From assembly GCA_965214705.1 (NCBI GenBank), contig OZ243972.1, forward strand, positions 288,001-352,000: a stretch of 64,000 nt of DNA, read 5' to 3'. A program made the translations under genes and the position numbers. The first letter of the stretch is position 1. Every line of letters starts with the position of its first letter. Origin of the DNA: Alphaproteobacteria bacterium (GTDB lineage Bacteria; Pseudomonadota; Alphaproteobacteria; UBA828). The notes beneath the pieces were generated by a model. That model searched no databases. It had not been told where the DNA came from and saw nothing but the letters and a program-made list of their open reading frames with translations. This document shows positions 1 through 36,297 of this stretch, piece by piece.

Positions 1-220
1 CGTCTACCGCAGATCGTGTCCTCTCTGAGTTGGCGCGGTCGTCGGCTGGTCCTTCCGGGTCGGAACGCTTTTCGCATCGGTCGTGCGCCTGTGCCCGTAC
101 CCAACTCTTATCCGGGTGGTTGCCAGCGGCGGGGCGCTAGCCCCATCCCACTTGCTGCGGGCACAGCATTCCGGAGGTGGGGCCCTACTCTACCCTTTCG
201 CGGTGTCCTCATTCTTTCCA
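1..220 (-). mobile_element. Possible IS110-family left-end non-coding region (remnant, runs off the window start)
   Basis: Minus strand reads GTGGAAAGAATG...CCCGGATAAGAGTTGGGTACGGGCACAGGCGCAC...GGAAGGACCAGCCG, then a degenerate ACGATCTGCGGTAGACG (TICG.D-like). Resembles IS110 leaders as I recall them; not verifiable here. Confidence 0.3.
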
Positions 221-641
221 CGCTCAAGCGCGACGAATTGATCCGCGAAGGGCGTCAGGACGAGGTCGAAAGCATGGTGCAGGCGGGTAAGGAGACCCAA
301 TCGGAGCTGCTTTCCGCCGATTGAGCGACGGGTATGTGCCGGGCACCTCTCATATTGCCCGCTTCGCATCGGGGTCGGGGTTCCGGGATCGAGCGATTCG
401 ACAGTTCTGTCGGCACAGTTTAATCGGCCAGAGAACCTTGGTTGAGCTGGCCAGCGCATCAGGACCGGCATGCCGGTCCTAATGCAAACAAGTCGGGATT
501 CTCTCGGATCCGGTGGTCCAATATCAGGGGCAAGTCCGATCCACCTCGTTCCATGAACAGCGGTGGACCAATCCAATAGGGGAGGGTCTGTTCGCTGCCA
601 CAGGATACGACCGCGCGTGATCAAGAAGCTCTGGGCGGCCC

Positions 642-1526
642 TCAGCCGCGAACGGTGACCGGATCGACGATGTTGAGGCGGGTGATGTAGCGTTGGAAGA
701 TCAAGGCCATGATCACGGGCGGGATGATCGAGAGTGTGCTCGCAGCCGCGAATACCACCATCGGGGTGAGCCCGAGCGCACCGATCGGCGACACCCCGAT
801 CAGCGCCGGCGACAAGGTTTGCCACTTGCCGCCGCCGGTCAGAATAATGGCGAACAGAAGCTCGTTCCAGGCGAACAGGAAAGCGATTATGAAGGCGGCG
901 CTGATGCCGGGCGCCGCCATTGGCAGCATGACGTACCACAGCACTTTCAGTCTGCTGCAACCGTCCAATCGGGCAGCGCGCTCGACCTCGAGCGGCAGGG
1001 TCGCGAAGTATCCCATCAGCACCCACGCCAGGAGCGGGATGATGGCGGTCAGATAGGTGATGATCAGCGAGACCGGATTGCCGATCAAGCCGACTTGCCT
1101 GAACAGCGTGAAGTAAGGAATGAGGATCGCGACCGGCGGCAGGACGCGGGTCAGCAGCAACGCGAACAGGAAGCCGGTCTTGCCACGAAACTCAAACCGG
1201 CCAAACGCGTAGCCGGCCAGCGTCGCGATAGCCGTCGCGATGACCGCCGTCGGCACCGCCACAAGTAGGCTGTTGATGAAGCCAACGCCTACCGCCCTGG
1301 TTTGGGCGCCGAAGATCGCGTCGTACCCCTCATCGTCCCCGGCCAGCCCGACGACGCGACGGTAGTTTTGCAGCGTTGGATCCTCAAGCCACTTGACAAT
1401 GCCCTGGTTCAGTTCGGCCGTCTGCATGAACGAGGCCCACAACAGCCAGAAGAACGGGCCGACCGTCCAGATGCCGACGATGATCGCCGCGATAATGATC
1501 AAGCGCTTCTGGCGGCCGTAGTCCAT
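642..1526 (-). CDS. Carbohydrate ABC transporter permease (MalG-like)
   Basis: Multiple TM segments, EAA-like loop EVERAARLDGCSRLKV, AWNELLFA motif; last gene of a 4-gene operon. Confidence 0.93.
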   Translation of the reverse strand: MDYGRQKRLIIIAAIIVGIWTVGPFFWLLWASFMQTAELNQGIVKWLEDPTLQNYRRVVGLAGDDEGYDAIFGAQTRAVGVGFINSLLVAVPTAVIATAIATLAGYAFGRFEFRGKTGFLFALLLTRVLPPVAILIPYFTLFRQVGLIGNPVSLIITYLTAIIPLLAWVLMGYFATLPLEVERAARLDGCSRLKVLWYVMLPMAAPGISAAFIIAFLFAWNELLFAIILTGGGKWQTLSPALIGVSPIGALGLTPMVVFAAASTLSIIPPVIMALIFQRYITRLNIVDPVTVRG

Positions 1527-1533
1527 GCCGGAT

Positions 1534-2478
1534 TCAGACGGCGGGTGCCGCTTTGACCTCGTCGACGGCGCGAGTCACGTGGCGGCGCCGCGACAGCAGA
1601 AAGAAGTATGCGCACGCGAGAATCGTCGCGATGATGATGAGAATGAACGAGGTCGCGGAGGCCAACCCGTATTGTGAGAGGTTGAAGTTGAAACGGTAGA
1701 TCTGCATCGGCAGCACCAGAGTCACGGTCCCCGGCCCGCCGGCGGTGAAGGCGAACACCAGATCGAACTGGCGGAAGGCATCGACGGTCATCACCACCAG
1801 AACGATCAGCACCGCGTACCGGATATGCGGCAAGGTCACGTACCAGAAGCGCGCGATCGGACCCGCGCCGTCGATGCGGGCCGCCCCGTAAAGCGCTTTC
1901 GGGATGCTCTGAAGCGCCGCCAGGAAGAAGAAGGCGCCTAGCGGTGCGATGTGCCAAACGAAGGCGACGGCGACCCAGAACAGCGCCCAGTCCTCGTTGA
2001 GCCAAACGAAGCCCTCCTCGACGATGCCGAGCGGCACAAGGATGCCGTTGAACACGCCCCAACCGGGATCGATCATCATCGTCCACAGCCCAGCGGTCAC
2101 GATCTCCGAGATCGCCCAAGGCATCAGCACCAGGGCCCGCAACAACCCGCGCAGCGGAAAGTCCATGTCGAGGACCAGCGCGATCGCGAGCGAGAGTACG
2201 AACGAGAGCACCGTCACTATTGCTGCGAACCACAGGCTGCGCCACGTGGCGTCGATGACGTCCTCGTTCTCAAGCGCCTCCTGCCACAGATCGAACCCGA
2301 CGTATTCCTGAGACCGCAAGATGATGTTGGTCTCGTGCAGGCTGAGCCAGAAGGAATAGGCCAGCGGCGCTCCGATGATCAAGAGGTGGAAGGCCAGCAC
2401 CGCTGCCACGATGGCGAACGCGAACTGGCCATCGGTCATGTAGCCGCCCCGCAGCGTCATTTGCCTGATAGAGGCCAA
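1534..2478 (-). CDS. Carbohydrate ABC transporter permease (MalF-like)
   Basis: TM segments, LQSIPKALYGAARIDGAG loop, FDLVFAFTAGGPG motif. Confidence 0.93.
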   Translation of the reverse strand: MASIRQMTLRGGYMTDGQFAFAIVAAVLAFHLLIIGAPLAYSFWLSLHETNIILRSQEYVGFDLWQEALENEDVIDATWRSLWFAAIVTVLSFVLSLAIALVLDMDFPLRGLLRALVLMPWAISEIVTAGLWTMMIDPGWGVFNGILVPLGIVEEGFVWLNEDWALFWVAVAFVWHIAPLGAFFFLAALQSIPKALYGAARIDGAGPIARFWYVTLPHIRYAVLIVLVVMTVDAFRQFDLVFAFTAGGPGTVTLVLPMQIYRFNFNLSQYGLASATSFILIIIATILACAYFFLLSRRRHVTRAVDEVKAAPAV

Positions 2479-2488
2479 GGCTTGCCAC

Positions 2489-3589
2489 CTACTGCGGATG
2501 GACCCGCCGTCCGACTGAATCGAACAGGTAGATCTTCTCCGCAGGCAGAACGAGCAGGATTGTTTCGCCGACCCTTACAACCCGGTCGGGCTGGGTACGG
2601 ACCTTGAACAGCGTCCGTGATTCCCCGCCCGACTGATCGAACGAAATATCGAGAAACAGATCCGAGCCCACTGGCTCGGTTGCGAACACGATACCGTTGA
2701 CCGCGCCATCGCCGCTCGGCGCCTCGATTTCCACGCTCTCCGCTCGGATGCCGAGAGTGACGGCCGGATCCGAGACCGCGTTGTAGAGGGATTCGGGCAG
2801 CGGCAAAAAGAACTCCGGAGCCTGGAACCCGTGGGCGCCATTGCACTCGGCCATTCGGCCCGCGATGAAGTTCATGCCGGGATCGCCAAGGAAGTTCGCC
2901 ACCAACCTGTTGGCCGGGCGGCGGTAGACATCATCGGGCGAGCCATATTGCTGAATGCGCCCTGCGTCCATGACGGCGATGCGATCCGCCATCGTCAGCG
3001 CTTCGACTTGATCGTGGGTCACATAGATGAAGGTGGCGCCAAGGCGCTCGTGCAACTTCTTCAGTTCGACGCGCATCTCGACCCTGAGTTTGGCATCGAG
3101 GCTCGACAGCGGCTCATCGAACAGGAACACCGCCGGGTCGCGAACGACGGCCCGTCCCAGCGCAATGCGCTGGCGCTGGCCGCCCGAGAGCTCGTGGACG
3201 CGCCGGTTCAGCAACTCACCGACATGCAGCAGTTCGCTTACCTCCTGCACGCGTCGAGCGATCTCCGGCCGTGGCATCCGCGCCATCTTGAGCGGGAAAC
3301 CGATATTCTGTGCGACCGTCATGTGGGGATAAAGCGCGATGCTTTGAAAAACCATCGCGATGTCGCGCTTGTCGGGCGGCACCCGTTCGACCGACCGCTC
3401 GGCGATGCGGATGGATCCCGCGGTCGGAATCTCCAGACCCGCGATCATGTTGAGCGTCGTGGTCTTGCCGCAACCCGAAGGCCCCAGCAAGACCACGAAC
3501 TCACCGTTTCCGACCCTCAGGTCGATGTTGTCGACGGCGAGGGTGTTACCAAAGCGTTTGGTAACACCCTCAAGCGCTACCTCCGCCAT
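2489..3589 (-). CDS. ABC transporter ATP-binding protein (MalK/UgpC-like)
   Basis: Walker A GPSGCGKT, signature LSGGQRQR, Walker B FLFDEP, YVTHDQ; start placed at MAEVALEG. Confidence 0.95.
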   Translation of the reverse strand: MAEVALEGVTKRFGNTLAVDNIDLRVGNGEFVVLLGPSGCGKTTTLNMIAGLEIPTAGSIRIAERSVERVPPDKRDIAMVFQSIALYPHMTVAQNIGFPLKMARMPRPEIARRVQEVSELLHVGELLNRRVHELSGGQRQRIALGRAVVRDPAVFLFDEPLSSLDAKLRVEMRVELKKLHERLGATFIYVTHDQVEALTMADRIAVMDAGRIQQYGSPDDVYRRPANRLVANFLGDPGMNFIAGRMAECNGAHGFQAPEFFLPLPESLYNAVSDPAVTLGIRAESVEIEAPSGDGAVNGIVFATEPVGSDLFLDISFDQSGGESRTLFKVRTQPDRVVRVGETILLVLPAEKIYLFDSVGRRVHPQ

Positions 3590-3608
3590 TGCTGATCGCT
3601 GCGACGAT

Positions 3609-5003
3609 TCAGGTGTACTTGCTCTGCAGCTTATCCCAGAGCTTGCGCAGTTTACGCGCAACCTCTTTTGGCGTGGCGTCGCCTTTCAGCAGGAGATCGT
3701 TCGAGATCATGTCATGCATCGGCAACATCCACTCCTCGAACCATGCTGCCTTCAGCATATTGCAGGCCATGGCCCGCGCCCGGCCCTCGTTTTGCCACTG
3801 GTACTGTAGCTCGCCGAGTTCGGGGTGCATCCATTTCATGACGGCCGCCTTGGCCTCCGGATCCTCATAAATGGACTCGAACGGCACCTGGAGATTAGCC
3901 TTCATCACCCACTTCTTGTGGGTATGGTACACACCCTCATGGTTCTTGTAGCCGAAGAACTGCGCCAGCTTCCACACCCGCAACAGGTCCTCTTCACTGC
4001 GCTCGCGATTGCGAATGGCAACGAAGGCGTGCCCGACTAGAACAGTGTCCTGGGTAGCACCGGGCATGACCGGGTTCATATTGTTGTAGGGGCCGACGGC
4101 GCCCGACTTGTCCCCGTAAGAGAACACCTGATAGTCCTGGAACGGATGGAAGGCGTGTTTTCCCGAGACCCAGGCATCATTCATCGGGCCTTCCTGCATG
4201 GTCAGGATGCCGCGCGGCACCAGACCCTCGTCCCACCACTGCTTCCAGTCCGTCATGACCTTCACGAACATCGAGTTCTCGTCGAAGGTGGCGTTCAGCC
4301 CGTCGTCGACCAGGTACTCACCCTCGGAATAGCAGTGTGAGAACAGGTTCCAGGGGATGCCGCCCCAGGCATTGTTCCAGTTCATCAAAAGCGGTTCTTC
4401 GCTGATCCCCCTCTTCTTGAGGTCGCGGCAGATATCGGCGACCTCTTCCCACGTCTGAGGATAGTCCGCGGGGTTCGTGGTGCCGCCATAACCGCCGGCG
4501 GCCAGCACCTTCTCGTTACGATAGAGGCAGCAGGGCCCGCCGTTGTAATAGGTGAGCGCCATGAACTTGCCGTCCGGCGCGCGCGAATCGTCCGCTACGC
4601 CCTTCTGCATCTCGGATTCGATCTGATCGAATCCGGGTAGATCATCGATCGGCCGGATCCAGCCTGCGGCGTACCACCGCGAGGCCTGACCGCGCCCCGT
4701 ATAGAACATGTCGACCTGGGCGTTCGAAGCGAGCTGGGTCTCGACCACCGCCGGATAATCGCCGGTTATGACCCGCGCATCGACGTCCTCGCCGTAGGCC
4801 TCATTGAAGGCCTCGACGTTGCCAAGCACGATCTCGCTGCCGAACGGCCAGAACAGGAAAACCAGCCGATCACGGGCATGCGCGCGACGGATGAACGGTC
4901 CGGTGGACGCGGTGACCGCCGCCAGCCCTGCGGCACCTTTGAGAATACTGCGACGGGTCTTCCCAGCCGCCAGAATTTTGGTCTTGGGTTGTAAAATCTC
5001 CAT
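3609..5003 (-). CDS. ABC transporter substrate-binding protein with Tat signal
   Basis: TRRSILK twin-arginine motif and AHA cleavage-like site; first gene of the ABC operon. Confidence 0.88.
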   Translation of the reverse strand: MEILQPKTKILAAGKTRRSILKGAAGLAAVTASTGPFIRRAHARDRLVFLFWPFGSEIVLGNVEAFNEAYGEDVDARVITGDYPAVVETQLASNAQVDMFYTGRGQASRWYAAGWIRPIDDLPGFDQIESEMQKGVADDSRAPDGKFMALTYYNGGPCCLYRNEKVLAAGGYGGTTNPADYPQTWEEVADICRDLKKRGISEEPLLMNWNNAWGGIPWNLFSHCYSEGEYLVDDGLNATFDENSMFVKVMTDWKQWWDEGLVPRGILTMQEGPMNDAWVSGKHAFHPFQDYQVFSYGDKSGAVGPYNNMNPVMPGATQDTVLVGHAFVAIRNRERSEEDLLRVWKLAQFFGYKNHEGVYHTHKKWVMKANLQVPFESIYEDPEAKAAVMKWMHPELGELQYQWQNEGRARAMACNMLKAAWFEEWMLPMHDMISNDLLLKGDATPKEVARKLRKLWDKLQSKYT

Positions 5004-5239: not shown

Positions 5240-5586
5240 CGCGCGCGCTCTCACCAAGCAGATCGAGGCGCACGACCCAGCGCCGGTACCGCGCCCTCGC
5301 CGCTGGCCATGCGAAAGCTCAAGGAGGACGACTGATGTACCTGCGACACTTCGCCTTCGCCCGCCTACCCTTCGAGACCCCGGCGGAGACCGACGAACTC
5401 TTTGAACTCCAGCACCCGCCGCGAGGCCGAGGCCAAGCGCGGCCACCTCGTCGAATTGCGCGGCATCGGCATGCTCACAGGCGAGGTGGTGAGAGGGCAA
5501 GACAACGGGCTGCCGCAACCTCACCGCCTAGTGCCACCAGGGCCTCTACAGCGTCCACTAGGTCTCGCTTACCACACCCGGCAACT
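5240..5586 (+). pseudogene. Degenerate ExeA-like AAA ATPase 5' part, preceded by a probable transposase tail
   Basis: ATG 5335 MYLRHFAFARLPF..., frameshifted into HLVELRGIGMLTGEV and GKTT..RNLTA*..GLYSVH*VSLTT; overlaps the stop of an upstream frame ending SPLAMRKLKEDD. Confidence 0.65.
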
Positions 5587-5930
5587 GGCCACCGCTCTCG
5601 AACGCCTTCGGGCGGAGGCGGGATACCCGGCGGAAGAACTCGAGGGCTGAGTGTTCCCGTCCCCGACGAGCGAACTGGGGTATATCGTGGAGCTTTTGCA
5701 TCCCTACACCCGCATCAGCCGGGCGGCCGGAACGAATTTCTGGTTCCATGGCCTGTGCAACTGCTTCATCACCGTGGCCGAGCGCGAGTTGATGCTGCCG
5801 CGCTCGCTGACCAAGCGATTGGTCAACCACGCTTGGCCTTCTGACGTGACCGAAGGCTACGCGGCGGACTGAACCTTGGAGCAACTCCGTGAGGCCGCGC
5901 AGCGCATCGCCGGTCGCTCCGCAGAATCAC
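5577..5930 (+). pseudogene. Tyrosine integrase C-terminal remnant, paralog of 23599-24831
   Basis: TRQLATALER...FWFHGLCNCFITVAERELMLPRSLTKRLVNHAWPSDVTEGYAAD* nearly matches the intact integrase; catalytic HxxR is HGLC and a Trp codon is TGA. Confidence 0.9.
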
Positions 5931-7393: not shown

Positions 7394-8236
7394 TCACAAG
7401 AGCTCTATGTCGATCGCCTGCGGGCCGCGCGCGCCCTGCGCCACCATCACACTCACCCGCTGGGCCGGCTCCAGAGCGCCCAGGCCCGCCCGGTTGAGCA
7501 CATTCCCGTGCACGAACACGTCCCGGCCGCCGCCGTCTGGAACGACGAAGCCGTAGCCCCTGGCGGCGTCGTAGAACTTGACGAAGCCGCGACGCTCCTC
7601 GGCCGGCCCTGCCGGCACGTCATGGCCAACCCCGCGTTCGCGCGAACCATGCCGTGGCTCATCGCGCCCCGCACGGGGAGCCGGCGCCGTCGATGCGTCC
7701 ACGGCCAGGATGGAGGACACGACCGGCCCCCTCCGTCCGTCCACCACCTCGCAGGTCACACTGGCGCCCTGCGGGAGCCTGTCGTAGCCCGCCCCTTCGA
7801 CGACCGAGACATGACAGAACGCATCCGGTGAGCCGTCGTCGGGAGCCAGGAACCCGAAACCCCTCGCCGCAACGAACCATTTCACCGTCGCCACGAGACG
7901 GCGCGCGGCAGCCGGCACCCGCTCGCCCTGCACATGGCCGTACTCCCCGCGTATCGGCCCACCGCTCCCTGCCGGCGCGGTGGATGGAACCGGAGCATCG
8001 ACGGCGTGGATCCGCCCGACCTGCGGACCTTGCCGGCCCTGCACCACCTCGCAGGTGACGCTCGCGCCCTCGGGGAGCGTGTCCCAGCCCGCCTGAGACA
8101 CTGCCGAGGCATGGCAGAAGAGATCGCGCGAGCCGTCGGCAGGGGCCAGGAAGCCGTATCCCCTCACCGAATCGTACCACTTGACCGACGCAACGACCGC
8201 AGCGCCGGGGACTGCCTCTGAAACGATCTCCTGCAT
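7394..8236 (-). CDS. Protein with three tandem cold-shock domains
   Basis: Three VK(W/F)...RG(Y/F)GF...D.F.H units (RNP1/RNP2) separated by Pro/Gly/Arg linkers. Confidence 0.92.
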   Translation of the reverse strand: MQEIVSEAVPGAAVVASVKWYDSVRGYGFLAPADGSRDLFCHASAVSQAGWDTLPEGASVTCEVVQGRQGPQVGRIHAVDAPVPSTAPAGSGGPIRGEYGHVQGERVPAAARRLVATVKWFVAARGFGFLAPDDGSPDAFCHVSVVEGAGYDRLPQGASVTCEVVDGRRGPVVSSILAVDASTAPAPRAGRDEPRHGSRERGVGHDVPAGPAEERRGFVKFYDAARGYGFVVPDGGGRDVFVHGNVLNRAGLGALEPAQRVSVMVAQGARGPQAIDIELL

Positions 8237-8577: not shown

Positions 8578-8895
8578 ATGCAGACGGCTACAGCAACCGA
8601 TCGCACCGCCAACACCTATCTCGTCCACCTGTTCGGTGCCGGGCTCGAGGACGAGCGCTACGAGGTGCAGCGCTTCCAGACCGCAGCGGACGGCGAGATC
8701 AGGCCCTGGCGCGCGGGCGCGCGGGCGAAGAACGGACGCAAGCAGGCCCGCAAGATCATGAGCCTGCGCTCGGTCCAGCGCCTTCGCCCCGACCGCAACG
8801 AGATCATCATTGCCAAGGGTGTCAGTGTCGGCGGCGGCATCCAGTACTGGGGCGAGTGGACGGTCAACTTCTCTGTCGATCGCAAGCATCGGTGA
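8578..8895 (+). CDS. Conserved hypothetical 105-aa backbone protein, copy A
   Basis: RBS GGAGGAGG; TYLVH.FG.GL...RY.V.R...G.IRP...EIII motif shared with 21751 and 55849 copies. Confidence 0.8.
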   Translation: MQTATATDRTANTYLVHLFGAGLEDERYEVQRFQTAADGEIRPWRAGARAKNGRKQARKIMSLRSVQRLRPDRNEIIIAKGVSVGGGIQYWGEWTVNFSVDRKHR

Positions 8896-8973
8896 CGCGC
8901 CGCCCGGCGGGGCCGCGCTGCCGCCGGGCCGTCCGCCCGCTCGACCTCATCGCAGCCGGGGAGGAGTTCGACC

Positions 8974-9783
8974 ATGCCGCATCGGACCCGCGATGACCGG
9001 CGCGCCGGCGAGAGGCGCCGGTACGAGAGTTCGACCGCAGAACGGCGCGCGCACGGCTTGTGTGTCCGCTGCGGCAACGCCCCGCCTGCGTCCGGGCGCG
9101 CGAAGTGCGAGCCGTGCCTTGAGCAGCGTCGCCTCGCCGACCGGGCCAGATATGCCGCAGCCAAGGCTGAAGGCCGCCCATACGGCGGCAGAGACCCCGA
9201 GGCTCGCCGGGGCAATGCGCGTGCGAGGTCCAGGCGCCGCTACGAGGCGCGGCGCGCCGCCGGAACATGCACACACTGTGGCCAGCGCCCGCCTGTGGCG
9301 GGGCGCAGCAGATGCGAGCCATGCCTCGTCCGCCGCAACGCCAAGGAGCGGGATCAGTGGGCCAGGCGGTGCGCTCTCGGGCTATGCGGCAAGTGCGGCA
9401 GGCCGGCGGGCGGCGCCTCGCGATGCGGCGCATGCGCCGCCGCCCAGTCCTGCGATCCGAGGGTCAGGCGCGCCTCCGCGCAGCGCCGATACTGGCGTCG
9501 GCGCGCCCTCTCGCGCTGTACCGATTGCGGCGAGTACGCGGCCGGCGCATCGCGATGCGAGCCCTGTGCGCGCCGGTCATGGGCGCGCTCCGCCGAGCAT
9601 CGCGGGCTGCCCGCGGGCCCGACCCGCTATCGCGTGCTGGAGATCGCAACCGGGGCTGATCACGGCCAGTGGGACTCCCTGGCCGAAGTGGCGGCTTGTC
9701 TGGCGTTCGCGAACCTCTCGCCCGAGGACGTCGTCATCGAGAGCGACGCCTCGCTCATGGCCTCGTTGACGGCATGGGCGTAA
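8974..9783 (+). CDS. Arg-rich protein with four CxxC-x(9-11)-CxxC putative zinc fingers, copy A
   Basis: RBS GGAGGAG; four paired-CxxC units and a conserved C-terminal AACLAF..L segment; two paralogs in window. Confidence 0.82.
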   Translation: MPHRTRDDRRAGERRRYESSTAERRAHGLCVRCGNAPPASGRAKCEPCLEQRRLADRARYAAAKAEGRPYGGRDPEARRGNARARSRRRYEARRAAGTCTHCGQRPPVAGRSRCEPCLVRRNAKERDQWARRCALGLCGKCGRPAGGASRCGACAAAQSCDPRVRRASAQRRYWRRRALSRCTDCGEYAAGASRCEPCARRSWARSAEHRGLPAGPTRYRVLEIATGADHGQWDSLAEVAACLAFANLSPEDVVIESDASLMASLTAWA

Positions 9784-9947
9784 GGGGCGGCGGGACGGCG
9801 ACGCCCCAGCCATCCCTCTGACGCCGGAGAGGCTGGCCAGGGAGAGTTGGAGAGTAGCTTGGAGGAGGGTGAACGGAGGAGATCAGGAGAGAGATCGATC
9901 CGTTCGACAACCTTCGTCAGCAACCTGGATGAACAGGAGACAAGACC

Positions 9948-9989
9948 ATGGCATTCGGACTGAACAGAGCCGAAGTGATCGGCCGTCTT
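9948..9989 (+). pseudogene. ssb: ssb 5' fragment, truncated after 14 codons (copy A)
   Basis: RBS AGGAGA; MAFGLNRAEVIGRL matches the N-termini of the ssb copies at 23208 and 53792, then similarity stops at AT-rich DNA. Confidence 0.88.
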
Positions 9990-10107
9990 CTCGTGAATCC
10001 CGTTTTCTCAATTTATGCATCTGTAACACACTTACATTAGGCGGATAATTAGAGAGCTTGCCTAAGCAATGCTTCTCTCCAAATCACAGTCAACACATGG
10101 TCAACAC
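9988..10107. mobile_element. Putative att junction / end of a second integrative element
   Basis: TTCTCG (CGAGAA on minus) at the ssb breakpoint, AT-rich stretch, tandem TCAACAC at 10090 and 10101; mirror image of 58867-58976. Confidence 0.55.
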
Positions 10108-10202: not shown

Positions 10203-11393
10203 ATGTCGAGCAATCCAAGCCGCGCGCCCCACGGCCGCACGATCAGAGACAGCAACGGATATGCCGCCTTCGCACCGGCACCGCTGCCTCCGCCGGTCGC
10301 ATGGGACGACGACCTCGTGGCCGCTCTCTCCACGGCGGATCGGGCCATCGGCCGGCTCGCGGGCGAAGGCAGGCGACTTCGCAACCCCCATCTCTTCGTC
10401 AAGCCATTCGTGCACCGCGAGGCGGTGCTGTCCAGCCGCATCGAGGGCACGCGCACCACCCTAGGCGAACTGCTCGTGGCCACGGCTGGTGGGACCAGCG
10501 CTAGAGCCTCCGCAGATCTCGAAGAGGTCGCCAACTATGTCGCTGCCCTCGAGCATGGATTGGAGCGTCTGTCCTCGCTGCCGCTCTCCCTGCGCCTCAT
10601 CAGGGAACTCCACGAACGCCTCATGCGCGGTGTGCGCGGAGACGCGGCGTTGCCCGGTGAGTTTCGGCGCAGCCAGAACTGGATCGGTCCACCCGGATGC
10701 AGCCTGAGCGAGGCCACCTACGTGCCCCCGCCCCCGACCGAGTTGATGGCGTGCCTCGATCCGTTCGAGCGCTTTCTCCATGACGATACGCTGCCCCCGC
10801 TGATCCATGCCGGCCTCGTCCACGTCCAGTTCGAGGCCATACATCCCTTCCTTGACGGCAACGGCCGCGTCGGCCGTCTGCTTGTCACGCTTCTTCTGGT
10901 CGAACGTGCCGTTCTTCCGTCGCCGCTGCTTTACCTGAGCGCCTACTTCGAGGCGACACGGGAGTTGTACTACGAGCATCTTCTGGCCGTGACACGGGAT
11001 GGAGCGTGGGAGCGGTGGCTGTGCTACTTCCTGCGCGGCGTCAAAGTCCAGGCCGAGGACGCGGTCGAGCGCATGGAACAGATCGACGGCCTTCTCGAGG
11101 ACTGGCGGGAAGAGCTTGGCGGCGCCCACTTGGGTCGACCCGGGGAAGTGTTGCGCCTGTTCGCCGAGAACCCGTTCCGGACCGTGAGGGGCGTTGCCGA
11201 GGAGTTGGGTGTCGCCTACACGACGGCCCAGCGCGCCGTCGAACGACTGCAGGTGGCGGGTATCGTCTCGCCGGTCGGCTCGGCGAAACGGAACCGCGTT
11301 TATTGCGCCCGGGATATGCTGGCAGTGCTGGAGGCGCCCCGCGCGGCGGCACGGTCGCTCCCGGAAGCGCTTCCCCCTCCAGAGACAGCATGA
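10203..11393 (+). CDS. Fic-family protein with C-terminal HTH
   Basis: Canonical HPFLDGNGRVGR motif; EAVLSSRIEGT segment. Confidence 0.95.
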   Translation: MSSNPSRAPHGRTIRDSNGYAAFAPAPLPPPVAWDDDLVAALSTADRAIGRLAGEGRRLRNPHLFVKPFVHREAVLSSRIEGTRTTLGELLVATAGGTSARASADLEEVANYVAALEHGLERLSSLPLSLRLIRELHERLMRGVRGDAALPGEFRRSQNWIGPPGCSLSEATYVPPPPTELMACLDPFERFLHDDTLPPLIHAGLVHVQFEAIHPFLDGNGRVGRLLVTLLLVERAVLPSPLLYLSAYFEATRELYYEHLLAVTRDGAWERWLCYFLRGVKVQAEDAVERMEQIDGLLEDWREELGGAHLGRPGEVLRLFAENPFRTVRGVAEELGVAYTTAQRAVERLQVAGIVSPVGSAKRNRVYCARDMLAVLEAPRAAARSLPEALPPPETA

Positions 11394-11439
11394 GCGACAC
11401 ACACTTGCCCTCGCCGACGATCGGCTGCCCGGCGCTGAC

Positions 11440-14400
11440 CTACACGCTTGCATGCTCGTCTGGCTCGAACACGAGCTCCGGCACGACCACCTCCCAGGTC
11501 TCGCATCTCGCATTGTCCCGATACTTGGGCTCCGATGCCTCGCGGCTCCACTCGACGACGGCAAAAACCCCGGCCGATCGGCAGCCCGTGCCTGCCGGCG
11601 GCTCAAAGCCGCTGGCCATGCGGCCCACCAGCATGCCCGCCCCGTCCACCAACTCCATCCTTCCGCTCTGCGCCATGCGCGTTTCCAGCGGGTCTCCGGG
11701 CGAGAGCGCAGAGATCGCGCGGTGGACGGGATGACGGGCGCGGTGCCGTCCTGCGAACCCGAGGTCCACCTCGCCGAGACCGGCGCGCGCATGGCGGCGG
11801 TGGAGAGCCTCGGGCGCGGGAGGGAGCTCGACCCGCTCCCGCTGCACCACCGAGGGGTTGCCCGACAGCGCGTCCTGCAATCGATGAGGACCCTCGAGGC
11901 GGGCAAGCGTGAGAGTGTGCCGGGCACGGGTCATGGCGACGTAGTACAGGCGGCGCGCCTCGTCGGGGTCTTCGCCCTGTCCCAGCCGGTTCCAGCCGCC
12001 GTCCAGCACGGCGACATGGTCGAACTCCAGCCCCTTGGCGCGGTGCGCGCTCAGCAGCAGCAGGCCGTGCTGGCGGCGACGGACGTCGCGGCCCCACTCG
12101 GCGAGCCACTCGATGAAGCGGTCAACCGGCATCTCCCCGGCGCCGGCCTCCAGCGCAAGCTCCTCGACGGCCTGCCGAAGCAGGTCGTTCCATGGGTCGG
12201 CCGGCTGCGATGACATCCAATCCCGCAAAGCGCCGGCATCGATCAAGCGCGGCTGCCGGACGCGCGCCCAAGCGACCAGCGCCCGGGTCTCGCGCAGGCG
12301 CCAGAAGCTCGGGATGTCTTCGTTGCCCATCTGCGCCGGTATCCCGTGCAGCTCGCAGAAGGCCCGCAGCGGCGCGAGGTACTCCCATGTGCGGGCGATC
12401 GCAGCGCAGCGCGACCAGTCCCAGCCGGGCGCGAGCGCGGCGAGGCGCCGGAACTCCGCCATGACGCATTGCGCCTGCGAGACGGCGTCCCCTCCCGCCG
12501 GCAGGATCTGCACCCTGCCGCGGGTTACGGGGTCCATCCCTTCCCACGGACCGCCCGGCGGATCCTTGGCCCGTGCCCGGTCGATGCGGATGGGATGTCC
12601 CGCCTTCATCCTCTCCCGCGCCGGCGCGATCACCGCGTTGGCCGCCGCCACGATATGCCCGCTCGAGCGGTAGTTCGACGTGAGGTACTTCGGCCGGGGT
12701 CCGTAATCCGCCTCGAACCGGCGGATGAACTCGACGGACGCGCCGTTGAAGGCGTAGACGTTCTGATCGTCGTCGCCCACCGCGAACAGGGTGAGCCTGC
12801 CAGCATCGTCCCCGAGCGTGCGCCCAGCGAGCGCCGATATCAGCTCGTACTGCTCCGGCCCGATATCCTGGTACTCGTCCACCAGAATCCAGCGGAACCC
12901 CGCCAGCAGCCGCTCGCGGCGCTCGTCCGCTTCCTCCGGCGGCAGGCCCTCTCCGCGCAGGAGCTCGACTGCGCGGCGGATCACCTCGCTGAAGGTATCC
13001 TCGTCCGGAGGCTCCTCCCGTCCGCTGAAGCTGGCCCCGGTCAGCCGCATCGCCAGTCCATGGCAGGTCAGAACGGTCACGCCGCGCGCGTTGTCGCCGA
13101 TCAGCCCGGCGAGGCGCCGGCGGATGTCGACCGCCGCGTGACGGTTGTACGCCAGCGCCAGGATGCCGCGCGCACTCTCCCGTTTCGCGCGGACGAGCCA
13201 GGCAATGCGATGCACCAGCACTCGCGTCTTGCCGGAACCGGGACCGGCCAGCACCAGCACATGGGCCTGCTCACGGTCGTCGGCGACGATGTCCTGCTGG
13301 ACCGGGTTCTTCAGGCTCTCGACGATGGCGCGCCAGGATTCGGGCGTGGTCTCGCGGCCGATCTCCTCGTCCCGCCCGGGCAGCCAGCACTCGAGGAACT
13401 CGTCCTCGCTCAGCGCAAAGTAGTCCATGGCCAGGCGCAGCGCGTCGCCCATCGCGGCGAGGCCGCGCTGGGCGAACTCCACCATCACGTGGATCTGCAG
13501 CACCTGCCCCTTGTAGTGAAGCGCGAGCGGCTCGAAGTCGGTGCCGGCGAAGCCGCGCCGCTCCCGCTGCTCCAGGCGGATCGTCATCGCCGGGCGGAAC
13601 ACCGCCAGCCCCTTGTTGAGGCGGATCACGTCCAGCTCGTGTAGCCAGAGCAGCGCGCGGTCCAGCAGCCTGGCGGTGTCCTTGACGCCGCTCTTCAGCA
13701 CCAGGTCCCCCTCGATCGCCTGCAGCAGGTTGCCGAGGGTGGTCTCCGCCAGAAGGTCCGTGCCATGGACGCCGGAAGGCAGGCAGCCGATGAGATGCTC
13801 CAGCAGGCGCACGGCGCCCTCGCGCCGGCGCCGCGCCGTCTCCTCCAGGGCTCCCCAGTCACGCTGCAGGGCAACCCGCACGGTCTCGGCATCGAGCTTC
13901 CTCACCGCCAGGCTTCCGCCTGCACCGTCCTCGCCCCAGCCGTCGTGGGCGATGCCCCGCACGATGCGCCAGAGCCGCTCCGGCAGAGGCTCGGGCAGGC
14001 CCCGGTCGCGCAGCACCTGGGCGGCGATGCGCAGGTGCAGGGATGAGGCGTCGCCCTTGCCCAGGTCCGGCGCCGCTTCGCGCATGTGGGAGATCAGCGC
14101 GGTCTCCAGCGCCGCCGCCTCATTCAGGCGCGTCGGCGAGGACCGCTCGACGCCCGCGTGCACGAACGCGGTCAGCGCCGTGTCGTTGCTGGCGATGCCG
14201 AGCCGCTCGAGATCGTAGAGCGCGGCGCGCACACCATCGGGACCGAGACCCGATGCCGCCATCAGCTCGTCGGTGGTGACGCCTTCGTCGGACGGGGCCT
14301 CGATCAGCGTCTCGGCGATCCGCAGCAGCTGCCCGCGATAGGGGTCCGCGATGTTCGCCCGCGCGAGCCGTCCCGCGGCTTGTTCAACCGAGTTCACGCG

Positions 14401-16662
14401 CAGCGAGGAGGGGAAAACCTCGACGAAGTTCTCCTCCCGGCTCAGCAGCTCCGCCTCTTCCAGCCAGGAGACGGCGGTGCGCACGCGGGTGTCGTCGGTC
14501 GCGCTGTCGCGCGCGAACGCCATGTCCTCGTCCTCGCCCAGGATCTCGCCCGCCGTCGCCACCACGTCCCCGCCGGAGCGCTTCTTCCGGTCCAGGTTGC
14601 GCAGCGCCCGCAGGATGCCGTGAATCTCCGCCCTGGTGAGCCGCGAGCGCGCCGACATGCCGAACTGGCGCTCCACGTCGTCCGCCGCATACAGCAGCAC
14701 GCAGCGCGCCGACGCCCGGTCGCGCCCGGCGCGGCCCGCCTCCTGGAGGTAGTTCTCCAGGGACCCCGGAATGTCCGCGTGGATCACCAGCCGCACGTCC
14801 GGCTTGTCGATCCCCATGCCGAAGGCGTTGGTCGCGGCGATCGCGCGAAGCGCGCCGCCGATGAAGCGCCGCTGCACGTCCTTCTTGGTCTCCGGAGGCA
14901 GGCCGGCATGGAAGCGGTCCGCCGCCACCTCCTTCGATTGCAGGTATTCCGCGACCTCCTCGCTCTGCCGCCGCGTCGCGCAATAGACGATCGCGCCGCC
15001 GGGCGCCTCCGGCGGCAAATGCGTAATCAGCACGCGGTGGATGTCGGCAAACTTCTCGCCGGACGACGTCGGGATCACTTCGAAAGTCAGGTTGGTGCGC
15101 TCCGCCCCGCCGTCGAACACGGTGAGCTCGATTTCGAGCTCGTCCCGGAAGTAGCGCACGATATCGCCGGTGACGTCCGGCCTGGCCGTCGCGGTCAGGC
15201 AGAGCACGGGCGGGATCGGCCCCGGACCGGCCTTCTCCCGGATGAAGCGGCCCACGTAGCGGTAGTCCGGCCTGAAGTCGTGGCCCCAGCGCGACAGGCA
15301 GTGGGCCTCGTCCAGAACCCAGGCACCGATCTCGCGCTGGTCGAGCGCCCGGCGAAGCGTGCGGGCGCGAAGCTGCTCCGGCGAGATCAGCAATATTCCC
15401 GCGTCTCCCAGCCGTACCCGGTCCAACGCGTCGACACGTTCGGGCATCGACTGCAGGCCGTTCACGGTCACGCACGAGCCGATCCCGCGCGCCTCCAGAC
15501 CCGCCACTTGGTCCGCCATCAGCGCGACCAGGGGAGAGATCACGACCGTCAGAGCGCCGGTCTTGTCGTAGCGGGAGAGCGCAGGGATCTGGTAGCAGAG
15601 CGACTTGCCGGTGCCCGTGGGCAGGATGCCGAGCACGTGCCTGCCCGCCAGCGCCGCTTCGACGATGGCCCGCTGCATGGGGCGTCCCTCGTCGTCCGCA
15701 GGCTCGGGACGGAAGCCGTCGAAGCCGAACCAGCGCTTGAGCTCCTTCCCGGCATCGTGCCGCTCGCGGCACCAGCCGCACTCCGAATCGGCGCAGGCCG
15801 CGTCCCTGAGGCGGCGCACCAGGCGCCCGGTCTCGGGGAACTGGTGGCGCACCCAGGGCGGCATGACGGAGTTGCCGCCGGCCACCGACAGCCATGCCAG
15901 CGCATAGGCCAACGCCCAGCCATGCTGTCGCGCTCGCGCCACCGCGTCGCGTCCGTGGGTCAGGCACGCGGCGCCTTCCAGCCGCCGGTACACGGCCGCC
16001 CCGGCCTCCTCCTCCGTGGGGCGGGGCGATCGGCGGAGATCTGCGAACGTCTCGTCCAGGGCGCGGTCGACTCCGGCGTGCTCCGGCGTGCCCAGCCAGT
16101 GCCACACCGTCAGCAGGTCGGCCGGAGCCTGCCCGAGCGCCCGCACCTGGTCGCCGAACACCTCCAGGGCGAGGCGGGCATCCAGCTCCGGATCGTTGAC
16201 CCGGCCGCGCCTGAGCCCGCCGTCCTGATAGTGCTTGACCAGATGGTGATAGGGATTGCGCGGAAAGGCCAGGGGGCTGAGGCGCAAGGTGTCAACCGCC
16301 GGCAGCGTCAGCAGCTTCAGATCCGGCTTGGCCGCCGCGAGATGGGGCAGGTCGAAGGCGATCAGGTTATGACCCAGCACGAAGTCCGCCCCCTCGGCGA
16401 GGCCGTCGAGCTTCGCCAGCGCACGCGCCAGTCCCGCGCCCGAGTGGACCAGGCGTTGGCCGGTATCGGGGCGGACCGCCCCGAAGGCGCGGATGCGGCC
16501 GTGCCGCCTGCCGACCTCCAGGTCGAGGGAGACGCAGCGGGGCCGGAAGGTAGTGGCTTCGTTCGCCGCCGCATCCCGCTCGGCCTCGACCACGGGCGAC
16601 TCACCCGCCAGCTGCTTGATCGCCGGTCCGGCGATGCCCCGCGGTTTGTCCTGGCCGTGCAA
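11440..16662 (-). CDS. Large RecQ-family + UvrD-like double helicase with N-terminal exonuclease-like region
   Basis: RecQ motifs PTGTGKS, DEAH, HDFRPDY, QEAGRAGRD; SF1 motifs AGPGSGKT, VDEYQD, GDDDQ, HRAKGLEFD, YVAMTRAR; N-terminal LDLE..GHN..FD..DTL. Confidence 0.92.
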   Translation of the reverse strand: MHGQDKPRGIAGPAIKQLAGESPVVEAERDAAANEATTFRPRCVSLDLEVGRRHGRIRAFGAVRPDTGQRLVHSGAGLARALAKLDGLAEGADFVLGHNLIAFDLPHLAAAKPDLKLLTLPAVDTLRLSPLAFPRNPYHHLVKHYQDGGLRRGRVNDPELDARLALEVFGDQVRALGQAPADLLTVWHWLGTPEHAGVDRALDETFADLRRSPRPTEEEAGAAVYRRLEGAACLTHGRDAVARARQHGWALAYALAWLSVAGGNSVMPPWVRHQFPETGRLVRRLRDAACADSECGWCRERHDAGKELKRWFGFDGFRPEPADDEGRPMQRAIVEAALAGRHVLGILPTGTGKSLCYQIPALSRYDKTGALTVVISPLVALMADQVAGLEARGIGSCVTVNGLQSMPERVDALDRVRLGDAGILLISPEQLRARTLRRALDQREIGAWVLDEAHCLSRWGHDFRPDYRYVGRFIREKAGPGPIPPVLCLTATARPDVTGDIVRYFRDELEIELTVFDGGAERTNLTFEVIPTSSGEKFADIHRVLITHLPPEAPGGAIVYCATRRQSEEVAEYLQSKEVAADRFHAGLPPETKKDVQRRFIGGALRAIAATNAFGMGIDKPDVRLVIHADIPGSLENYLQEAGRAGRDRASARCVLLYAADDVERQFGMSARSRLTRAEIHGILRALRNLDRKKRSGGDVVATAGEILGEDEDMAFARDSATDDTRVRTAVSWLEEAELLSREENFVEVFPSSLRVNSVEQAAGRLARANIADPYRGQLLRIAETLIEAPSDEGVTTDELMAASGLGPDGVRAALYDLERLGIASNDTALTAFVHAGVERSSPTRLNEAAALETALISHMREAAPDLGKGDASSLHLRIAAQVLRDRGLPEPLPERLWRIVRGIAHDGWGEDGAGGSLAVRKLDAETVRVALQRDWGALEETARRRREGAVRLLEHLIGCLPSGVHGTDLLAETTLGNLLQAIEGDLVLKSGVKDTARLLDRALLWLHELDVIRLNKGLAVFRPAMTIRLEQRERRGFAGTDFEPLALHYKGQVLQIHVMVEFAQRGLAAMGDALRLAMDYFALSEDEFLECWLPGRDEEIGRETTPESWRAIVESLKNPVQQDIVADDREQAHVLVLAGPGSGKTRVLVHRIAWLVRAKRESARGILALAYNRHAAVDIRRRLAGLIGDNARGVTVLTCHGLAMRLTGASFSGREEPPDEDTFSEVIRRAVELLRGEGLPPEEADERRERLLAGFRWILVDEYQDIGPEQYELISALAGRTLGDDAGRLTLFAVGDDDQNVYAFNGASVEFIRRFEADYGPRPKYLTSNYRSSGHIVAAANAVIAPARERMKAGHPIRIDRARAKDPPGGPWEGMDPVTRGRVQILPAGGDAVSQAQCVMAEFRRLAALAPGWDWSRCAAIARTWEYLAPLRAFCELHGIPAQMGNEDIPSFWRLRETRALVAWARVRQPRLIDAGALRDWMSSQPADPWNDLLRQAVEELALEAGAGEMPVDRFIEWLAEWGRDVRRRQHGLLLLSAHRAKGLEFDHVAVLDGGWNRLGQGEDPDEARRLYYVAMTRARHTLTLARLEGPHRLQDALSGNPSVVQRERVELPPAPEALHRRHARAGLGEVDLGFAGRHRARHPVHRAISALSPGDPLETRMAQSGRMELVDGAGMLVGRMASGFEPPAGTGCRSAGVFAVVEWSREASEPKYRDNARCETWEVVVPELVFEPDEHASV

Positions 16663-16681
16663 CGCCGACCCTCCGACTCAC

Positions 16682-18989
16682 CTAACAGGGCGCCCGGCGG
16701 CGCCGGCCGAGCCGGATCGAGCATCGCCCATGCCGGCCGGCCCCAAGGCCCGAACGCCGGGCCCGGCAGATCTCGCCGGCGTCGTCGGCCGTGCGGCGGG
16801 ATGCCGATCCGCCGAGCCATTCGTCGAGCTTCGACCAGCGCCGGCGTCCCGAGACGTTGCGCACCGCGATCGCCACCGCCTTCTTCTGTCCCACCAGCAC
16901 CACCAGCCGCTTGCCCCGCGTCACCCCGGTGTAGAGCAGACTACGCCGCAGCATCGCGTAGTGCTGCGTCAGCACCGGGATGACCACCGCCGGATACTCC
17001 GAGCCCTGGCTTTTGTGCACGGTCGCGGCATAGGCCGGCACCAGCGTGTCCAGCCCGCCGAAGCCGTAGACATGGTCGCGTCCGCTCGAAGCGTGCCGTG
17101 AGCTCCCCGGCCTCGGGGTCGACGTCGACAACCTGGCCGATGTCGCCGTTGTAGACCTCCTTGTCGTAGTCGTTCTCGATCTGCATCACCTTGTCGCCGG
17201 GCGCGAAGGTCCAGCCGAAGCGCTCCACCCTGCGCTCGCCGGCCGGGTTGAGGGCGGCCTGAAGCTCGATGTTGAGCGAACGCGCGCCCGCCCCGCCCCG
17301 GTTCATCGGACACAGCACCTGGATATCGCGTACCGGGTCGAGGCCGAAGCGCTTCGGGATGCGCGTCTTCACCAGCTCGACGATCCTGGCGGCGGCGGTC
17401 TCCGGGTCGTCCGCCGGCACGAAGTAGAAGTCGCTGTCGCCGTCGGGCCGTGACAGGTCGGGGATGGCGCCCCGGTTGATCCCGTGAGCCGAGGTCACGA
17501 TCCGGCTCCGCACCGCCTGGCGGAACACCTCGGTCAGCCGCGCCACAGGCACCGCGCCCGAGACGATGATGTCGGCGAGCACCTGGCCGGGTCCCACGGA
17601 GGGCAGCCGGTCGACATCGCCCACGATCAGCAGCGCGGCTTCGTCGGGCACCGCCGCCAGCAGCGAGCGCATCAGCGGGACATCCACCATCGAGGTCTCG
17701 TCGATTACCAGAAGGTCGCAGTCAAGCGGGTTGGCCGCATCGCGCCTGAAGCCGCCGTGCCCAGGGTCCACCTCCAGCAGGCGATGCACCGTCTTCGCCT
17801 CCATCCCGGTGGCCTCGCTCATCCGCTTCGCGGCGCGCCCGGTCGGCGCGCACAGGAGAATGTCCACGCCCTTGGCCGAGAGGATGCGCAGGATCGCGTT
17901 GACGATCGTCGTCTTGCCCACGCCAGGCCCGCCCGTGACCACGGTGGCCTTGGCGGTGAGCGCAATACGGACCGCGTCGGCCTGGCCCGCTGCCAGGGCA
18001 AGGCCGGTCTTCCGCTCGACCCAGGGCAGCGCCTTCCCGATATCGATGTCCGGCCAGGGCAGCGGGCCGGCCGCGATCCGCAGAATCCGGTCCGCGATCG
18101 CCTGCTCCGCCCGGTAGAGGCCCCCGAGGAACACGCAGGGGGTATCGGCCACCGTGTCCGCGACCACGCTGCCTTCGGCCAACTCAAGGTCGAGCGCGCT
18201 TCGGACCAGGTCGTCGGGAACCTCCAGAAACCGGGATGCGAGCGGCCCCAGCTCTTCCGCCGGCAGGCCGCAATGCCCCTCGTCCATCGCCTCGGTCAGC
18301 GCATAGGAGATGCCCGCTCTAACCCGAATCGTCGCCGTCTTCTCGATGCCGAGCTTCATCGCGATGGTGTCGGCGGTCCTGAAGCCGATCCCGCGTATGT
18401 CGCGGGCGAGGCGGTAGGGGTTCTCCGTCATCACCTCGATGGCGTCCGCACCGTAGGTCCTGAATATGCGCACCGCCCGCGCCGTGCCCACGCCATGGCC
18501 GTGCAGGAATACCATGATCTCGCGCGACGCCTTCTGCTCCGCCCACGCGCCGGTGATGCGCCCGGCCCGGACCTTCCCGATCCCGGTCACCTCGCGAAGC
18601 CGTTCCGGCTCCGCCTCGATCACGTCGAACATCTTCTCGCCGAAGGCCCGCACCAGCTTGCCGGCATAGACGGGGCCGATGCCCCGGATCATGCCCGAGC
18701 CCAGGTACTTCTCGATGCCCTCCACGGATGACGGTGTGGACGTGCGCACGAAGCGCGCCTTGAACTGGTGCCCGTGGGTGCGGTCGTTGACCCATTCGCC
18801 CGACGCCGTGATCCATTCCCCGGCTCCACCATCGCGGCTCGGCCCACCACCGTGACAAGGTCGCGATGGCCCCCTGGCCTTCGTCCTGAGAACGCAGAAG
18901 CCGTTCTCGGGGTTGTGGTAGGTGACGCGCTCCACCAGGCCGGCCAGGACCTCCCGCTCCTCGGACGGCCGCTGCCGGCCGGCGGTCAA
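16682..18989 (-). pseudogene. recD2: RecD2-like SF1B helicase, frameshifted as given
   Basis: HhH region, GGPGVGKT, CAPTGRAA, IDETSM; C-terminal [24 protein letters not shown] lies in another frame (shift near 17085); compensated indel pair near 18830-18875. Confidence 0.85.
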
Positions 18990-19080
18990 GCCGCGCCGGG
19001 CGCGGATTGCGCCGCCCGCTCCCCGTTGCGCGAGGCGGGCATGCGCGTGTCGTGCGCTGCCGCTCCGGCGTCCCTGCGGT

Positions 19081-19758: not shown

Positions 19759-19929
19759 CGAACCCAACCTCCGCTCGGTGCGACCTCTCGCGCCGCGGCG
19801 ATGCGCCTCAGTATATGGCCTCCCGGAAGCGTCGTCCTACCCGTGCGACTTCGGCAATAAACAGCCCCCGGTGCTCGGTCGAATCGCATGCCGCGGGGCG
19901 CGACCGCGCCCGGACAGGCAGGAGACCCG

Positions 19930-20113
19930 TTCCCGCGCGCATTCCTCATGTCGCAGCCGAGAGCTGGGCTCCTTCCGGCCCATGACGAACGTGCCATAAT
20001 CCACTTGCGGCTCCGCCGCGAGCAGCATCCGCACTCGATGAGGCCGCGCGCCGTCGGCAGGTGTCAGGAAGCCGAACCCTTTCACCGGGTCGCATCACGT
20101 CAACCTCCTCATG
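19930..20113 (-). pseudogene. Cold-shock-domain remnant
   Basis: Minus strand reads LT*CDPVKGFGFLTPADG, an RNP1 motif with the Trp codon as TGA; similar to RGYGFLAPADG in 7394-8236. Confidence 0.6.
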
Positions 20114-25344: not shown

Positions 25345-25350
25345 CGGACG

Positions 25351-36291: not shown

Positions 36292-36297
36292 CGGCGC

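Follow-up and report, generated by a model that had tools for sequence, protein, structure and literature searches.

How many related integrative elements are stacked in the 64,000-nucleotide (nt) stretch of contig OZ243972.1 that we analysed (hereafter, the window), and is the ssb gene that breaks off near position 9,990 the place where one of them has entered another? The window, from an alphaproteobacterium of the UBA828 lineage, is a mosaic: an ABC-transporter operon is followed by gene remnants (5336-5916) and then by three diverged backbone modules, copies A, B and C. Each module comprises orf1, a zinc-ribbon protein and ssb. At the protein level the copies are 44-52% identical to each other; they are therefore old relatives and not recent duplications. 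An earlier note on this DNA had suggested that element C sits inside ssb of an element B, which in turn sits inside ssb of an element A. We found that C is nested in B and that an end of B is located at the break in ssb A. For the complete three-level nesting (C in B in A) we estimate a probability of about 0.6.

The comparisons given below were made with 79 integrase loci found by searching genome contigs with the integrase gene of element C (int C). The related integrases are 59-90% identical to int C and come almost all from metagenome-assembled genomes of several phyla. Several of these loci share assembled genomes, thus the counts of loci are not counts of independent events.

The ssb stump and the element end beside it

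The module that the earlier note had called copy A is indeed a further copy of the backbone, as seen from the amino acid identities of its orf1 and zinc-ribbon proteins to those of B and C (Table 1). The third gene of the copy, ssb A, is cut short. The sequence 9849-9988 is 76% identical over 143 nt to the upstream region and 5' end of ssb B (23112-23248) and 69% identical over 140 nt to ssb C (53887-53752); the nucleotide similarity to both copies ends at 9988. With 14 codons the stump is too short for a profile search, and we identified it as ssb by this nucleotide similarity together with the peptide MAFGLNRAEVIGRL, which is the same as the first 14 residues of ssb in the related loci L015 and L021. 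Past residue 14, all 17 ssb 5' ends of the related loci, as well as the two others in the window, read G(A/S)D. A 12-nt in-frame deletion in ssb A (IGRL-LVN) was considered and rejected, the match to L031 being not significant.

Beyond the break the composition changes sharply, with a G+C content of 0.40 at 9993-10090 compared to 0.72 at 9000-9947. In this AT-rich DNA the motif TCAACAC occurs twice in tandem (10090-10096 and 10101-10107), with a spacing of 11 bp and at a distance of 100 bp from the break. On the opposite strand the pair makes up the doublet GTGTTG-N5-GTGTTG, which has two matches in the window, both strands searched, against 0.00 expected; none of 100 dinucleotide shuffles had any. 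The second match is the non-integrase end of element C. When one mismatch and a spacer of N5 or N6 were allowed, the window contained three doublets in total, the third being on the integrase side of C at 23560. We see the same layout, inverted, at the right end of the 35.5-kb element C, where CGAGAAG (58971-58977) lies 104 nt from the start of the doublet; the doublet-to-junction distance at the B end is 114 nt. In all these respects the description in the earlier note was accurate, including the truncation of ssb A at TTCTCG.

Among the 79 loci, the N5 doublet is present in seven, while the N6 form stands at the start of the integrase in C and in 29 of the loci. Wherever the context is readable (C, L023, L031 and L066) the N5 doublet belongs to the element end opposite the integrase: in L023 and L031 it is located 1.6-2.1 kb beyond the minus-strand Zn and orf1 genes, and in L066 it adjoins the 3' part of a split SLOG gene. 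Since the doublet at 10107 points left, the element has its interior on the right-hand side. Reading rightward from 9990 we find arm, cargo, orf1, Zn, ssb, primase and SLOG, an order that mirrors C, L023 and L031.

The DNA between the doublet and the break also has a homolog. A local alignment to the non-integrase arm of L067 had a score of 36, compared to 17.2 +/- 2.8 for shuffled sequences, and none of 1000 shuffles reached it. The match spans the whole arm, running from the doublet through CGCCTAATGT (10 of 10 positions) to GATTCA(C)GA(G)A(A/T)GA(C/T)GGC. The left and right attachment (att) sites of L067, attL and attR, have a 9-bp direct repeat, ATGGCAAGA, in common, and this repeat aligns with ACGGCCGAT of B, which is the reverse complement of ssb codons 11-13. 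From this alignment we infer that the crossover of B probably took place in ACGGCCGAT/AAGACGG. The longer segment AAGACGGCCGA corresponds in reverse complement to ssb codons 11 (nt 2) to 14; within it codon 13 is CGT in ssb A and CGC in ssb B and ssb C. We observed that ssb A joins the arm 0-3 nt from the aligned start of the L067 crossover repeat. A break so close to the homologous crossover position points to a junction made by an integrase and not to a random deletion end.

The doublet, the arm homology and the mirrored gene order establish that 9990 is an element end with the interior rightward, as the earlier note had it, and there is good support for a second att place in ssb, distinct from that of C. 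More specifically, 9987-9993 is probably the attR formed between ssb of a decayed resident element A and the non-integrase end of the inserted element B.

One claim of that note is doubtful, namely that the ends of B and C have a CGAGAA core in common. The core-type sites, the position and the orientation all differ. At the B end the sequence is GGGATTCAC-GAGAAG-ACGGCC, with no ATGTT site, while in C the sites CGAATGT and ACATACG stand around TCGAGAA; the B end has the opposite orientation relative to ssb and falls at codon 14, compared to codons 69-70 for C. Of the string CTTCTCG (9987-9993), CTT is codon 14 of ssb A and only CTCG is certainly non-ssb. The match of CGAGAAG between the B end and attR of C is probably in part a coincidence; with AAG belonging to ssb codon 14 and CGAG to the arm, we regard it as largely so.

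Whole-arm alignments of the B arm to the arms of L031, C, L023, L066, L070 and L072 were not significant, and a MAFFT alignment of six arms had little aligned beyond the doublet. A resemblance of the B arm to the integrase-side arms of L041, L047, L052, L036 and L043 (AACGGGA and GCATAAAT in common) was rejected as chance, the scores being at the level of shuffled sequences; these five were not top-ranked among 69 loci for similarity to the B arm. Motif scans of the 79 loci with the junction-proximal strings of B returned noise only, and a hidden Markov model of the B, L067 and L072 arms detected no further ends in the 1.62 Mb searched.

L067 (9840-11520) and L072 (1-1660) are integrase-only mini-elements of about 1.6 kb, with the order integrase-side doublet, integrase, N5 doublet, junction. 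L067 sits in the signal-peptide region of an fn3 lipoprotein gene and is flanked by ATGGCAAGA.

Element C and the target sites of its relatives

The nesting of C in B, the other half of what the earlier note had put forward, can be read directly. Codons 1-70 of ssb B (...LIDMLEK) are at 23208-23417; the remainder of the gene (HAKKGRLVY...) resumes at 58978 and is followed by the primase gene. The attL of C reads GACATGCTTGAGAA joined to ACATACGG, and the attR reads CTCGAATGTTCGAGAAG joined to CACGCG. In the core, the inverted sites CGAATGT and ACATACG flank TCGAGAA. The left part of this overlap tolerates mismatches: in C as well as in L023, attL has the target version and attR the element version. 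C carries the integrase and a MobF relaxase, and no genes of a type IV secretion system or mating pore were found in it by Pfam; thus, C looks like an integrative mobilizable element (IME).

C has an intact ssb of its own. Its codons 67-71 read GAC ATG CTG ACC AAG AAC GCG, compared to GAC ATG TTC GAG AAG CAC GCG in target ssb genes (in the window, 23406-23419 and 58965-58983), with three mismatches in the TCGAGAA overlap. Such changes, judged from the sequence, may protect the ssb of C from insertion by elements of its own kind.

An interrupted backbone gene of a kin element adjoins the integrase in 27 of the 79 loci, and in 21 of these 27 the gene is ssb; the remaining 52 integrases adjoin ordinary genes or unassigned DNA. 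The most frequent place is ssb codons 69-70 in forward orientation (12 loci in nine records). In ten loci, ssb codons 1-70 stand directly upstream of the integrase, and the junction, ...GACATGTTCGAGAA followed by ACAT..., is as in C. L042 and L065 use the codon 69-70 place too, but they have another integrase-side arm and belong to another integrase clade. Insertion after codon 32, forward as in C, was observed in L064, L068 and L076. In the reverse orientation, the ssb piece starts from codon 19 in L041, L047 and L052, from codon 15 in L036, L043 and L031, and from codon 3 (codon 2/3) at the second integrases of L018 and L024. The loci with the codon-19 junction have the order integrase, rest of ssb, primase, SLOG, which is the layout predicted for the unseen side of B. 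In total we observed five places in ssb, in both orientations, and so the family does insert into ssb of its own kin at several places, as the earlier note had supposed. Other interrupted backbone genes were SLOG, split in four loci including L066, a relaxase gene (one locus) and a coupling-protein gene (one locus). A tRNA target was rejected, as no tRNA genes were present in the window and none adjoined any of the 79 integrases.

The insertion place follows the integrase clade. On a FastTree tree of 74 integrases with nine site labels, the labels required 14 changes for the nine groups, compared to a mean of 28.7 for shuffled labels, and none of 200 shuffles was as low. Eight integrases had been left out as truncated or stop-bearing (L001, L026, L034, L038, L039, L049, L074 and L079). 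The near-identical elements of L003, L006, L007 and L023, all from one record, are found at four different places, so the choice of target can be loose.

Several loci show more complex arrangements. In L018 (7280-8901) and L024 (8219-9842) the second integrase, with about 61% identity, is on the opposite strand, and a 70-codon ssb piece stands between two different element ends. L036 (9587-9900) has two ssb pieces fused head to head at codon 67-70 sites (ATGCACGAGAA-TCA-TTTTCAAGCAT), which looks like the product of an integrase-made inversion or deletion.

L031 has an attP-like stretch (7532-7828) made of an N5 doublet, 127 nt, a segment of 20 nt, 132 nt and an N6-type doublet, and a group II intron lies between this stretch and the integrase at 10001. 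The 20 nt resemble the reverse complement of ssb codons 16-22. The stretch could be a tandem accretion or two elements side by side in one ssb. It suggests that the clade of L031 crosses over inside ssb codons 16-22. If codons 16-22 are the segment shared by the codon-15 clade, its site is a neighbour of the site of B. L036 and L043 were considered as the other half of the B site and rejected: although the boundaries are 1 nt apart, these are neighbouring sites.

In a plasmid collection the integrase search gave a single distant match (31% identity) and no close relative, and a megablast search of plasmids with the segment 5000-12000 yielded nothing beyond a 3% chance match.

Alternative histories of the junction

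The history that we favour has the following steps. B, an element of the same family, would have entered ssb of the partly decayed resident element A, in an orientation inverted relative to C, so that its arm and doublet precede about 10 kb of cargo and then its backbone. C later split the ssb of B itself at codons 69-70. The integrase would be of the arm-binding tyrosine type, with its N-terminal Arm-DNA-binding domain placed on the GTGTTG doublets of both arms, and strand exchange by its catalytic domain would take place in a short overlap located some 105-115 bp away from the non-integrase doublet. The crossover of B would have used the opposite strand, the reverse complement of ssb codons 11-14 (ATC GGC CGT CTT), and that of C the TCGAGAA at codons 68-70. 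B is then likely to be one continuous element reaching past 64000, where a minus-strand integrase and then ssb A from about codon 11-15 (...GRLGAD...) should follow. The far junction of B would carry a repeat of a few bases of ATCGGCCGTCTT, with ssb A continuing GGN GCN GAC...

A number of findings weigh against this history. The far end of B lies past 64000 and is unseen, for which reason three-level nesting is only probable. The left flank of element A is scrambled, and its outer end is not recognisable in the window; no further doublet is present there even with one mismatch. None of the 17 ssb 5' ends in the related loci breaks at codon 14, so the place has no second example, and the nearest reverse junctions (codon 15 in L036, L043 and L031) adjoin the place of B without being its other half. 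With respect to the arm, one of the seven arms tested, that of L067, gave a significant match, and the target of L067 itself is an ordinary lipoprotein gene, not ssb; L072 has only CGAGAAGACCGGCGA in common with the B end, near the junction. Finally, rearrangements of the integrase type do occur in the family (L036).

The last point leads to the strongest of the alternatives. Three integrase-made histories give the same junction: insertion, which is a single event, inversion after insertion elsewhere, and deletion. B could first have inserted elsewhere, for example at codon 69-70 of another ssb, after which the family integrase recombined the att site of B, within the same molecule, with a look-alike site in codons 11-14 of ssb A; in that case one would expect the remainder of ssb A to be missing downstream or inverted. 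The canonical crossover position fits any integrase-made event, the head-to-head fusion in L036 and the attP-like fusion of two arms in L031 are of a suitable kind, the A side is decayed and otherwise rearranged, and the codon-14 insertion stands as a solitary case. Nevertheless, inversion or deletion calls for at least two events and insertion for a single one. The ssb codons 11-14 fit the aligned crossover segment well, so that direct insertion needs no special pleading, and insertions in reverse orientation into the 5' part of ssb are documented by eight related loci and by the two second integrases. We consider this alternative unlikely.

Less probable still is that B is real but dead, that is, an integrase-less, cis-mobilisable relic with its far end lost, in which case the window would hold a fossil stack and not three nested mobile elements. 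There is decay nearby, such as the integrase remnant at 5600-5916, the group II intron in backbone B and the IS91 inside C, and eight of the 79 relatives have truncated or stop-bearing integrases. Conversely, no sign of truncation of B was seen in the window, and its readable backbone genes (orfB1, ZnB and primase B) are open; this view differs from the favoured history only in the present-day activity of B.

The view of 9990 as an ordinary deletion endpoint or old relic, with ssb A free of any insertion and the likeness to an element end partly due to chance, is largely refuted and very improbable, since the chance-level similarity of the B arm beyond the doublet to the arms of C, L023, L031, L066, L070 and L072 and the four of seven certainly non-ssb bases of the claimed core are met by a doublet with no expected chance occurrence, an L067 arm match that no shuffle reproduced, a break at the homologous crossover position and doublet-to-junction distances close to each other.

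The window as a whole and known systems

The features of the window are collected in Table 1. At the left border of the island, the integrase remnant is 75.5% identical at the nucleotide level to int C at 24535-24812, and its best blastx match is L033 (81% over 105 amino acids). That the remnant was the integrase of element A itself is not demonstrable. A short open reading frame 5' of it, in the 5336-5916 region, has what we take to be an ExeA-like N-terminus; neither a doublet nor an att site is recognisable at 5336-5916. Neither an integrase nor a relaxase of A or B is present inside the window; specifically, 9990-64000 outside C has neither an integrase gene nor a second doublet. In copy A, orfA1 had no Pfam or NCBIfam match. 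ZnB has a weak match to DZR_2, under the family cutoff, and both ssb B and ssb C match Pfam PF00436 (SSB).

Table 1. Positions of the main features in the window (ends of minus-strand genes as recorded)
Feature	Position	Strand	Remarks
Chromosomal ABC-transporter operon	1-5003		
Tyrosine integrase remnant of the same family, 3' part of about 106 codons	5600-5916	+	Scrambled left border of the island
orfA1, backbone copy A	8578-8895	+	No known family; 47% / 44% amino acid identity to the B / C copies
ZnA, cysteine-rich zinc-ribbon-like protein, copy A	8974-9783	+	48% / 45% amino acid identity to ZnB / ZnC
ssb A upstream region	9849-9947	+	Part of the 76% nt match to 23112-23248
ssb A stump, codons 1-14, MAFGLNRAEVIGRL	9948-9989	+	ATG at 9948
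Junction and proposed crossover segment	9979-9993	-	Reads CGAG joined to AAGACGGCCGA
Core-proximal part of the non-integrase (P) arm, element B	9990-10090	-	40% G+C; aligned to the L067 arm
Arm-type doublet GTGTTGACCATGTGTTG	10091-10107	-	11-bp spacing; mark of the non-integrase end
Cargo of element B	10203-20085		Fic, RecQ-like/UvrD-like fused helicase (-), RecD2 (-), SOUL protein (-), stump
Second Fic gene, orfB1, ZnB, ssb B codons 1-70 (backbone B)	20344-23417	+	
orfB1 (orf1 of copy B)	21670-22074	+	47% amino acid identity to orfA1 (compared over 21751-22053)
ZnB	22093-22950	+	Backbone copy B
ssb B, start	23208	+	Backbone copy B
Element C, 35.5 kb	23406-58977	+	attL core ATGCTTGAGAA (23406-23416) to attR core ATGTTCGAGAAG
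int C	23560-24831	+	Pfam Arm-DNA-bind_3 and Phage_integrase
Integrase-side doublet of C	23560-23577		
MobF relaxase of C	42256-45234		
Backbone of C	50056-56175	-	
ssb C, intact	53792-53325	-	Backbone copy C
ZnC	55483-54752	-	Backbone copy C
orf1 of copy C	56175-55855	-	44% amino acid identity to orfA1
Non-integrase doublet of C	58867-58883		GTGTTG at 58867 and 58878
Backbone B, continued	58966-64000	+	Rest of ssb B, primase B, group II intron, SLOG B
Rest of ssb B	58966-59214	+	
Primase B, DUF7146-Toprim	59215-60477	+	
Group II intron	about 60900-62600	-	Between the primase region and SLOG of backbone B

The fused helicase in the cargo of B has 1740 amino acids and a DpdF-like match below the family cutoff, and the stump in this cargo resembles the start of the cold-shock gene of copy A. 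With its two Fic-domain proteins, fused helicase and RecD2, the cargo (10203-21450) may be a defence island. In the continuation of backbone B, the intron was identified by an Rfam Intron_gpII match (60909-61009) and a reverse transcriptase/maturase reading frame (60993-62567, minus strand), and SLOG B runs off the end of the window.

The cargo of C (25129-35216) has a HicA/HicB pair and a run of genes for a cysteine desulfurase-like aminotransferase, DUF4007, a 1156-aa protein, a PAPS-reductase domain, a helicase and a GHKL ATPase. The layout of this run resembles what we take to be an Ssp-type DNA phosphorothioation and defence system. Also inside C, at 35251-37539, a gene for an XerC-like tyrosine recombinase is directly followed by one for an IS91-family (Y2) transposase. 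The SLOG gene of C is flanked by a direct repeat of about 118 nt (49607-49724 and 51336-51452), which is 95% identical, and 99% in the inner 90 nt.

Taken broadly, these observations bring us to a reading that we hold tentatively, at somewhat less than even odds: an integrase family, known to date only from uncultured bacteria of several phyla, may have radiated onto the backbone genes of its own kin, with embedded elements stacked at least three deep and with self-immunity. The main target would be ssb, at six or more places on both strands; the guest would disable the early-acting ssb of its host while its own ssb is changed at the target site, in what would be a conjugative-element counterpart of the helper-embedded satellites of phages. 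Neither the nesting of mobile elements nor the presence of guests within conserved genes of conjugative elements is new in itself. The novelty would lie in one integrase family repeatedly re-aimed within the small ssb gene of its relatives, on both strands, and guests bringing a target-resistant ssb of their own. Among the papers listed by full-text literature searches, none turned up that describes insertion into ssb of a kin element. If the reading is true, the family offers a natural series for target change by a tyrosine integrase, with the same arms and different cores, as well as an instance of competition, or of hitch-hiking, among related mobile elements. In annotation it accounts for the several ssb stumps per island and for the failure of simple delimitation by direct repeats.

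Tyrosine integrases of the arm-binding lambda/P4 type have repeated arm-type sites, placed some 100-150 bp away from a short core that contains inverted core-type sites. The present family is similar in having arm sites on both arms and, in C, the core CGAATGT-TCGAGAA-ACATACG. It differs in its targets, which are not tRNA genes (none adjoins the 79 integrases) and lie inside protein genes that the insertion destroys, and in tolerating mismatches in the left part of the overlap.

The helper-embedded phage satellites provide a second parallel: in both systems a single integrase clade has subclades that each use one of many sites in genes of the carrier element, the attP regions have a doubled motif, and nested composites are formed. 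The satellites reside in enterobacterial helper prophages, while the partners here are relaxase-bearing integrative elements known from sequence alone, and the targets here are the ssb, SLOG, relaxase and coupling-protein genes.

Streptococcal IMEs, as described in the review PMC5704250, reside as guests in the oriT or in conserved genes of conjugative elements. C is like them in having a tyrosine integrase and a relaxase with no mating-pore genes detected, in its insertion inside a conserved gene of another transferable element, and in forming nested composites. The host element here is different in being kin of its guest, the two having the orf1-Zn-ssb-primase-SLOG backbone in common; as target we find ssb, a gene without mention in that review; and members of one integrase family have settled in at least five places of this single gene, in either orientation. 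The hosts here are uncultured Proteobacteria and members of other phyla, compared to Firmicutes for the IMEs covered there. Nested composites of integrative and conjugative elements are still being reported, for example in PMC12942858.

Tandem accretion and the cis-mobilisable relics (CIMEs) of genomic islands are known from Pavlovic 2004 and Bellanger 2011, as cited in PMC5704250. Our stacks are similar in consisting of related elements brought together by site-specific recombination, with the older members decaying. Accretion places elements side by side at a shared att site, for which L031 may be a true case; in contrast, the guest in our window is within a gene in the interior of its host element.

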